DNA of 64,000 nt. Source: Escherichia coli. Lineage in GTDB: Bacteria; Pseudomonadota; Gammaproteobacteria; Enterobacterales; Enterobacteriaceae. This document shows, piece by piece, positions 6,001 to 9,000 of the stretch. The number at the start of each line of letters is the position of its first letter. Positions within the stretch are counted from its first letter, which is position 1. The stretch lies in NCBI RefSeq assembly GCF_002854065.1, contig NZ_CP024147.1. The stretch is one strand, 5' to 3'. Position numbers: made by a program.

Positions 6001-9000
6001 GTTATAGCCGGTGACCGAATTATCCAGCGCCAGATACTCAACCTGTTGCAATACTGTATGTTGCGCATCGCGGTACTTTGGATTTTTGCGTGCAGTAATC
6101 TTTTCGTTAACTACCCACTGATCAAGCACAAAGGCACCGTTGTAAACCATGTTCTCTGGCTTACTTCAGCTATCGCCATGTTTAGCGATGACATGATGAG
6201 GAACCGGGAACAGCGTCGGCCAGGCGAGCATCGTCGTGAACCAAGGAACCGGCTGCTCAAGCGTAACTTCAAGAGTACGATCATCCGTCGCTTTGACACC
6301 CAGCGATGTAACATCTGCTTTACCCGCAACAATAGCCGCGGCATTGTTAATGTGCGCCTGTGCCAGATAGCCAGCAAAAGGGCTTGCCGTTTTCGGGTCA
6401 ACCGCGCGCTGCCAGCCGAGGACAAAATCCTCTGCCGTCAGAGGCTGACCGTCTGACCACTGCAAACCGCTACGCAGATGGAAAATATAGCGCCTGCCGC
6501 CGTCCAGTATCTCCCAGCGTTCAGCCTGAGCGGGCTGCACCTGGCCTTCACCGTCCATCCATACCAGACCTTCAAACAGATCCAGCACAATCTGCGCGGC
6601 AGTATTCTCCTCCACCTTTTGCGGGTCGAGCGTACCTGGGTCGCTATGATTGTTGTAACGAAAGACTTGTTGCGGAGCGAGCGGTGTGTTGGTGGGAACG
6701 TCAGCAGCGTAGAGAGGAGCCGCACTTACCAGGCTGACCAGCCATAATAAATTTCGCGTATACATGGTATTCCTTACCGGAGAAATTATAAGCCGAACAA
6801 CAATACGCCTGTGGCATTGTTCGCTCAAACTTATCGCGAGTGATTTGGCTCACACTCCGGTAAAGATTCCCCATCACGCTAACGGCACATAAACATCCGT
6901 TTCCAGTCGCTGCTCCGTCACCCCTTCGGCAAGATTGGTGTAGTGAAACAGAATCGGTGCTTTACGCATTTTCTCGCCGCTTGCAGGCAGCCAGTGGCGA
7001 ATAATGCCCCATATCGTGTGTGAAATATCGTCCAGCTCGCCAACGTGGCGGGCCACGGCATAACGTCCACCGGTAAGTTCACCATTACTCACACCATAAC
7101 GATTATCGGGAATCGGTTCGCTAACGCTGCCGCAGATATCAAAGCGAAACGCTTCTGGTGCGGTGGTGGCAGGGTCGTCCCAGGCGACGCCAAAAGTCTG
7201 GCTTTAGTTAACTGGAGAAAGCCCCGTCTCTTTACGCCACATGATAAATTTCGCCACGCTGTAGTTGAGCAACTCAGGGCTACAGCGGTGCGGCAACATC
7301 GCCACAGGGATTGATGGGAAATCGATAATGTTTACATCCAGTGTCAGGTTTGTCATTTTGCCTCCCTGCGAAATTATTCCCGGGAACGCATCCCGGGAGC
7401 GGTAACAATTACGGATTTACTTTGCGGATCTGTTTGACGTCAATTTCAACAGAATTCCAGTCTTTATCGACTTCACCCTGAATCTCAACCGTATCTTTCG
7501 GCGTCACCGTCACGCCGTTCCAGCGTTTGTGGTCGATATCAACATTGATAGTACCGCTGGCATCTTTGAACACGTAGAGATCGTCAGAGATGCGTTCAAC
7601 GATATTGCCGCGCAGGGTTACCCAGGTGTCGTCACGCAGGGATTTTGCGCTTTCTACAGTCGTTACGCTGCCGTTCGGCCCCTGGAATCCTCCGGCCTGA
7701 CTTTGCGTTGCCGATGGGCCAGAAAAACCGCCCTGCTCTGCTGCCATCACCGGTGCGCTGCACAGGGCCATTACTGCGATTACTGCTGCGAATTTTTTCA
7801 TGTTTATTACTCCCTTTAATGTCTGTTTCCGAGCATTTAACAAGATAGTCCTTAACAACTTCTTAAGGGAAAAAAATAAAATTTAGTGCTGTACAGAGCG
7901 CGTTACAACACGGTTTACTGGCAGCAAATACGGTTATCGCAGGGATGAAAAAATGCGAATTTTACTGATAGAAGATGACATGCTGATTGGCGACGGCATC
8001 AAAACGGGCCTTAGTAAAATGGGTTTTAGCGTCGACTGGTTTACACAAGGTTGTCAGGGAAAAGAGGCGCTTTATAGCGCACCTTATGATGCGGTGATCC
8101 TGGATTTAACCTTACCAGGCATGGATGGTCGCGATATTTTGCGCGAATGGCGAGAAAAAGGTCAGCGTGAGCCGGTACTGATCCTGACCGCGCGCGATGC
8201 GCTGGAGGAACGTGTAGAAGGGCTGCGTCTGGGAGCTGACGATTATCTGTGTAAACCTTTTGCGTTGATAGAAGTCGCCGCCAGGCTGGAAGCTCTGATG
8301 CGCCGAACCAACGGCCAGGCCAGCAACGAGCTGCGCCACGGTAACGTCATGCTCGACCCCGGCAAACGTATCGCCACGCTGGCTGGCGAACCCTTAATAC
8401 TGAAACCAAAAGAATTTGCTCTGCTGGAATTACTGATGCGTAACGCTGGTCGGGTACTGCCGCGCAAACTGATTGAAGAGAAACTGTATACCTGGGACGA
8501 AGAGGTCACCAGTAATGCCGTTGAAGTGCATGTGCATCATCTGCGACGCAAACTCGGCAGTGATTTTATTCGTACCGTGCATGGTATTGGCTACACATTA
8601 GGTGAGAAATGAAATTTACCCAACGTCTTAGTCTACGTGTCAGGCTGACGCTAATCTTTTTAATTCTGGCCTCGGTGACCTGGCTGCTTTCCAGCTTTGT
8701 CGCCTGGAAACAAACAACGGATAACGTCGATGAGTTGTTCGACACCCAACTGATGCTGTTTGCCAAGCGGTTAAGTACGCTCGATCTCAACGAAATCAAC
8801 GCGGCGGATCGCATGGCACAGACGCCAAATAAATTAAAACACGGTCATGTTGATGACGATGCGCTGACCTTTGCCATCTTTACCCACGACGGCAGAATGG
8901 TCCTTAATGATGGCGATAACGGAGAAGATATTCCCTATAGCTATCAACGGGAAGGTTTTGCTGACGGGCAACTGGTCGGTGAAGACGATCCCTGGCGTTT

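Follow-up and report, generated by a model that had tools for sequence, protein, structure and literature searches.

An apparently ancestral, unoccupied mqsRA site between two recently truncated genes of Escherichia coli

The main finding of this work is that the short interval between ygiS and ygiV in the stretch of Escherichia coli DNA analysed here (64,000 nucleotides of contig NZ_CP024147.1, hereafter the window) appears to be the original form of the site at which K-12 carries the mqsR-mqsA toxin-antitoxin (TA) genes. Comparison of sequences within and around the species indicates that the empty site is ancestral, that it is held by the majority of E. coli genomes and without exception by the other Escherichia examined, and that mqsRA is a derived insertion, apparently acquired horizontally, in a minority of E. 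coli. Both flanking genes are interrupted by nonsense mutations, which are real, inherited and recent, and which are unrelated to the absence of mqsRA. We regard it as very probable that a never-occupied ancestral site was joined by separate, later and clone-specific nonsense mutations in two dispensable genes.

Results

Organization of the locus

The genes of this part of the E. coli chromosome follow in the window in the order parC (2762-5020, minus strand), ygiS, ygiV, ygiW, qseB, qseC and mdaB. The start codon of ygiS (CAT on the plus strand, 6763-6765) and the stop codon of ygiV (TCA on the plus strand, 6874-6876) delimit the gap given in Table 1, so that the interval of about 108 bp reported in an earlier note on this DNA proved exact to the base. 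That note had also described the gap as free of open reading frames (ORFs), and this was upheld by a mechanical ORF scan, in which no ORF of at least 20 aa was found inside the gap; the three ORFs that overlap it (6166-6828 and 6701-6877 on the minus strand, 6764-6892 on the plus strand) all extend into ygiS or ygiV. The K-12 gene order given in the note is correct: K-12 MG1655 reads parC, ygiS, mqsA, mqsR, ygiV, ygiW, qseB.

Table 1. Features of the ygiS-ygiV locus, in window positions
Feature	Position	Strand	Remarks
ygiS pseudogene, W200*; periplasmic solute-binding protein, SBP_bac_5	5158..6765	-	PGAP 'internal stop' in CUWW06, 100416
ygiV-ygiS intergenic region	6766..6873	-	108 bp; unoccupied mqsRA site; collinear with K-12 except at the insertion point
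Insertion point, 5 bp TTCCC	6867..6871		base-by-base junction comparison; replaced in K-12 by the 927-bp mqsA-mqsR segment
ygiV pseudogene, Q51*; GyrI-like domain regulator	6874..7356	-	PGAP 'internal stop' in CUWW06, 100416

The mqsRA segment of K-12

Alignment to K-12 gave 99.3% identity over window positions 5000-6866 and 99.0% over 6872-8000, and between the two aligned blocks K-12 has 927 bp where the window has the 5 bp TTCCC. The K-12 segment comprises the mqsA terminator, mqsA, mqsR, operator palindromes and about 200 bp upstream, and on the right it is separated from the ygiV stop codon by 2 bp. The 101 bp that separate the mqsA terminator from ygiS in K-12 are the same as those found in the window gap. 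K-12 MqsR matches the MqsR_toxin domain (PF15723, E = 5.5e-35) and K-12 MqsA the MqsA_antitoxin domain (PF15731, E = 7.2e-56). The GC content of the segment is 41%, against 52-55% in its flanks (ygiS, ygiV and parC). At the boundaries of the insert neither terminal direct or inverted repeats nor a target-site duplication were found, the sole notable repeat being the pair of known MqsA operator palindromes.

Search for mqsRA elsewhere

Translated searches (tblastn) of the whole 64-kb window returned no homologue of MqsR (best E = 0.8) or of MqsA (best E = 1.6). Beyond the window, a chimeric blastn query was used in sensitive mode, in which the window locus was joined to K-12 mqsR-mqsA in reverse orientation, an arrangement that prevents a merged match. 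In the chromosome records of CUWW06 and 100416 this query matched one place only, the ygiS-ygiV locus itself, with a detection floor of about 65-70% DNA identity, below which a more divergent homologue would escape. A copy of mqsRA elsewhere in the genome, named in the earlier note as evidence that would speak against its reading, was therefore not found in the chromosome records of these two near-identical genomes (9-22 SNPs per 50 kb from the window); beyond the window, the absence is that of these two chromosome records, of which CUWW06 is without the extra island of this strain. Across the complete E. coli collection no mqsRA DNA was found on plasmids, and the chimeric query returned a single plasmid place.

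Distribution in E. coli and the ancestral state

The state of the locus was scored in 5426 complete E. coli genomes with a 201-bp junction query for the empty site and an insert-only query for mqsRA; a 2.5-kb query is unfit to separate the two states, since pieces up to about 1750 bp apart are joined and K-12-type loci also score as one place. The mqsRA segment was present in 2299 genomes (42%), in all of them chromosomal and at an identity of at least 99%. The uninterrupted junction was present in 3123 (58%) at 94.5-100% identity, O157:H7 and O127:H6 E2348/69 being among them. These counts add up to 5422 of the 5426, so that nearly all genomes are in one state or the other. When ygiS is also considered, about 42% carry mqsRA, about 33% have the empty site with ygiS, and 25% have the empty site with ygiS replaced.

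Outside the species, one genome each was scanned of E. albertii, E. whittamii, 'E. coli' SCPM-O-B-8794, Escherichia sp. MOD1-EC7003 and E1V33, and in none of these five other Escherichia species do MqsR or MqsA adjoin ygiV. In the three outgroups with an intact ygiS (E. albertii, E. whittamii and SCPM-O-B-8794) the gap measures 108-110 bp. The junction can be aligned through in the window, E2348/69, strain C2 and the same three outgroups, and K-12 alone departs at the insertion point. The GGGAA/TTCCC bases at the junction are common to the window and the outgroups and are missing in K-12; since a deletion from a K-12-like ancestor would not recreate them, the empty site is best taken as ancestral. 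An ancestral unoccupied site is recognised by a junction common to outgroups without the insert and by an insert with signs of foreign origin, and both were found. The foreign-origin signs are the low GC content of the insert relative to its flanks and its near uniformity, at least 99% identity in all 2299 carriers as against 94.5-100% for the empty junction. The proposal that this lineage never acquired mqsRA, offered in the earlier note as one of two options, is in this way supported by the 3123 empty junctions among 5426 genomes, the outgroup gaps of 108-110 bp, the retained TTCCC and the 41% GC of the insert.

The same observations bear on the opposite scenario, that the lineage once had mqsRA and lost it by deletion, the nonsense mutations of its neighbours being signs of an ongoing decay of the locus. 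TA loci can indeed be lost, and both neighbours are pseudogenes, the sole two in the part of the region common to CUWW06 and the window. Such a deletion, however, must have restored the exact TTCCC seen in E. albertii, in E. whittamii and in B2 and E strains, and the empty junction follows the phylogeny (94.5-100% identity), whereas the insert is at least 99% identical everywhere. Moreover, mqsRA is absent in all five outgroup species, and the nonsense mutations arose far more recently than the polymorphism for presence or absence of mqsRA. We consider a deletion very improbable, and already close to refuted.

Nonsense mutations in ygiS and ygiV

The earlier note had reported nonsense mutations in both flanking genes, and one was confirmed in each. 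W200* in ygiS is a TGG>TGA change at 6166-6168 (C>T on the plus strand at 6166) and Q51* in ygiV is a CAA>TAA change at 7204-7206 (G>A on the plus strand at 7206), both in-frame and free of frameshifts. The first lies inside the SBP_bac_5 domain (residues 75-453) and truncates YgiS at residue 199 of 535; the second lies inside the GyrI-like domain (residues 7-159) and truncates YgiV at residue 50 of 160. The sequence of both genes in CUWW06 and 100416 is identical to that of the window, and PGAP annotates them there as pseudogenes with an 'internal stop'. With a stop inside a conserved domain and intact orthologues in close relatives, ygiS and ygiV can both be classed as pseudogenes.

Exact matches to 61-mers centred on each mutation occur in the same two of the 5426 genomes, those of CUWW06, from wastewater in Thailand, and of 100416, from human stool in Gambia. 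Over 50 kb, 9 and 21 SNPs separate the window from these two, and its agreement with CUWW06 ends after 53946, at an extra island of the window. In the nearest genomes outside this clone, XJ34 and GDSC2227PM, both ygiS and ygiV are intact. The confinement of the two mutations to CUWW06 and 100416, together with their absence from XJ34 and GDSC2227PM, shows that they are real, inherited and recent, of an age that has nothing to do with the mqsRA polymorphism. That the stop codons are instead errors of sequencing or assembly, ygiS and ygiV being intact, has a negligible probability, since both changes are substitutions and not homopolymer indels, and they are identical in three independently obtained sequences, those of the window, the Thai wastewater isolate and the Gambian stool isolate.

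From 2085 to 9728 the clone is set apart from both XJ34 and GDSC2227PM by the two nonsense mutations alone. Of the 35 coding SNPs found over 50 kb on the stem and tips of the clone, 5 are nonsense: ygiS W200* and ygiV Q51* on the stem, yqiJ W205* in CUWW06, and ttdT W104* and Q277* in 100416. GC>AT transitions make up 19 of the 26 within-clone SNPs, and the nonsense fraction expected is 5.0% for GC>AT transitions and 3.5% for all single-base changes. A naive count gives the excess a P of about 0.004, and a P of about 0.08 is obtained when the second ttdT mutation and the near-terminal yqiJ mutation are left out, both values being post hoc and based on small numbers. The excess is no more than weakly suggestive, either of selection for loss of function or of a biased mutation spectrum, and we do not count it as a finding. 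Engineered stops (base editing) were also considered, as all five nonsense mutations are GC>AT changes, and were rejected, since the strains that carry them come from environmental and clinical sources in Thailand and Gambia.

Loss of ygiS in other genomes

In 1357 of the 5426 E. coli genomes (25%), a 236-bp segment stands in place of ygiS with the empty junction preserved, and of ygiS itself only 42 bp of the 3' end and 22 bp of the 5' end remain. The segment lies at 4043-4278 of the locus of strain C2 (L005) and also in that of PV0838 (L006), in the equivalent of window positions 5200-6743. An Rfam scan of it gave no match. One divergent copy lies under an annotated group II intron maturase gene, on which account the segment may represent what is left of an intron. 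Only fragments of ygiS persist in two further Escherichia species (L008 and L010). The gene is clearly dispensable and has been lost repeatedly in Escherichia. In the ygiS-less genomes examined ygiV is intact, so that there is no sign of a functional coupling of the two losses. The empty site occurs together with a ygiS-length sequence in about 1766 genomes (by subtraction, 3123 minus 1357), intactness of ygiS having been checked directly in three of them, E2348/69, XJ34 and GDSC2227PM; the absence of mqsRA is thus not tied to decay of its neighbours. The suggestion of the earlier note that the locus is under relaxed selection stands insofar as ygiS is dispensable and repeatedly lost, but not as a tie to mqsRA, and the nonsense mutations are found in only 2 of the 5426 genomes.

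These losses also bear on the possibility that the paired inactivation of ygiS and ygiV was positively selected, for example because a lower uptake of deoxycholate gave a higher bile tolerance. Apart from the two nonsense mutations, a 7.6-kb tract contains no change specific to the clone, the genes affected are adjacent, nonsense SNPs are in excess in the clone, and there have been at least four independent losses of ygiS in Escherichia; in addition, the import of deoxycholate is reportedly promoted by ygiS (Kwan et al., 2015, as cited in PMC6918082). Nevertheless, these statistics are post hoc and rest on small numbers, with a conservative P of about 0.08, and the intact ygiV of the ygiS-less genomes examined gives no sign of a coupled loss. 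Parts of the bile story around this locus, moreover, were not reproducible (PMC6918082). Positive selection for the double loss is therefore considered unlikely.

The gap as a possible leader of ygiS

The gap is 90-92% identical to that of other Escherichia, compared with 69-75% at third codon positions of ygiS and ygiV. On the strand in the sense of the genes its predicted fold has a free energy of -40.8 kcal/mol (z = -4.78), a value reached by none of 200 shuffled sequences, and on the opposite strand one of -31.9 kcal/mol (z = -3.19). The predicted structure consists of an invariant 12-bp outer stem (CUUUACCGGAG...CUCCGGUAAGG) around two inner hairpins. None of the 41 predicted pairs has a compensatory change, because the gap sequences are too similar to inform on this point. 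The gap had no match in Rfam and no second copy in the 64-kb window. A scan for promoters and terminators between 6500 and 7500 gave no more sites than in shuffled sequence, which makes it uninformative on the transcription of ygiS.

The gap most likely contains the promoter and leader of ygiS, and the predicted fold suggests that this leader may be structured. A further-reaching possibility would be that the gap is an undescribed, conserved and structured cis-regulatory leader of ygiS, at the 5' edge of which mqsRA was inserted without disturbing it, and that the recurrent loss of ygiS, including W200*, results from selection on bile-acid uptake; this we hold to be doubtful.

Other features of the window

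Several other features of gene content were observed. K-12 and E. whittamii have the gene ygiZ (DUF2645) between qseC and mdaB; the window lacks it, and its qseC and mdaB are only 109 bp apart (9959-10067), as they are in E2348/69 and E. albertii. Between ygiN and parE, which adjoin in K-12, a seven-gene cluster for iron-siderophore uptake occupies 11039-18231, with a MurR/RpiR regulator, a substrate-binding protein, two FecCD permeases, an ABC ATPase and a TonB-dependent receptor among its parts. At 32769-33500 there is a tandem pair of units of about 357 bp, 91% identical, with two ibs type I toxin genes (ibsD/ibsE-like in the annotation of CUWW06). A CP4-like integrative island, missing in the near-identical CUWW06, spans 53950-64000 beside a tRNA gene (anticodon CAT, 53824-53899); it contains DUF4942, a CbtA/CbeA type IV TA pair, RadC, an antirestriction protein, DUF932, an Ag43/AIDA-like autotransporter and a YeeP-like GTPase. 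With CbtA/CbeA on this island, the window does have a TA module, of a type different from mqsRA.

Discussion

Taken together, these observations suggest the following history of the locus. The 108-bp gap would be the original ygiV-ygiS intergenic region of Escherichia, never occupied in this lineage. An AT-rich mqsRA cassette of 927 bp would have entered one E. coli sublineage horizontally, taking the place of 5 bp that lay 2 bp beyond the ygiV stop codon, in what we infer to have been a single insertion event, and it would then have reached about 42% of complete genomes. The lineage of the window, judging from the outgroups and from the ancestral bases that it retains, would never have received the cassette. 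Much later, the narrow clone that includes the window strain, CUWW06 and 100416 would have fixed two GC>AT point mutations that truncate YgiS and YgiV. Since ygiS and ygiV are dispensable and losses of ygiS recur across the genus, the simplest reading of this last step seems to be that drift in a young clone turned both into pseudogenes in the ordinary way. Drift may perhaps not be the whole story, as the two stops are the only differences of the clone in 2085-9728 and nonsense changes are over-represented, in a test that is post hoc.

With regard to its meaning, the comparison shows K-12 to be in the minority state, most E. coli and every other Escherichia species examined being without mqsRA, a result of little import beyond annotation. 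Because mqsRA is absent in most E. coli, roles proposed for MqsRA on the basis of K-12, such as bile tolerance via ygiS, cannot be general to the species, and the species-wide tally of locus states may help to place the disputed literature on MqsRA. Type II TA modules of chromosomes belong to the accessory genes, which are transferred horizontally and inserted between core genes (PMC7167474; PMC5120126), and mqsRA is absent from the AIEC strain NRG857c (PMC7232551). The view of mqsRA as a derived accessory insertion agrees with both observations.

The two pseudogenes resemble the lineage-specific nonsense pseudogenes of young E. coli clones, in which the same kind of single GC>AT stop occurs in dispensable genes of a few close isolates. 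The present case differs from the typical one in that two adjacent genes are affected on one short branch and in that nonsense changes are somewhat over-represented. As for the site itself, the closest known system is the type II TA locus mqsRA of K-12 (b3022/b3021), which occupies the same position between ygiS and ygiV, with flanks 99.0-99.3% identical to those of the window. Unlike K-12, the window has no ORF for MqsR_toxin or MqsA_antitoxin, no operator palindromes and no mqsA terminator, and has the five ancestral bases instead. Empty chromosomal TA sites have been described before (Ramisetty and Santhosh, 2016; Fiedoruk et al., 2015; as cited in PMC7167474 and PMC5120126) and, as far as these citing papers present them, they display the same clean presence or absence between core genes and a cassette of low GC content relative to its flanks, as in mqsRA here. 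The locus of the window is a further instance of such an unoccupied TA site, from which it differs in nothing substantive, and which is an already known and ordinary feature of E. coli chromosomes.
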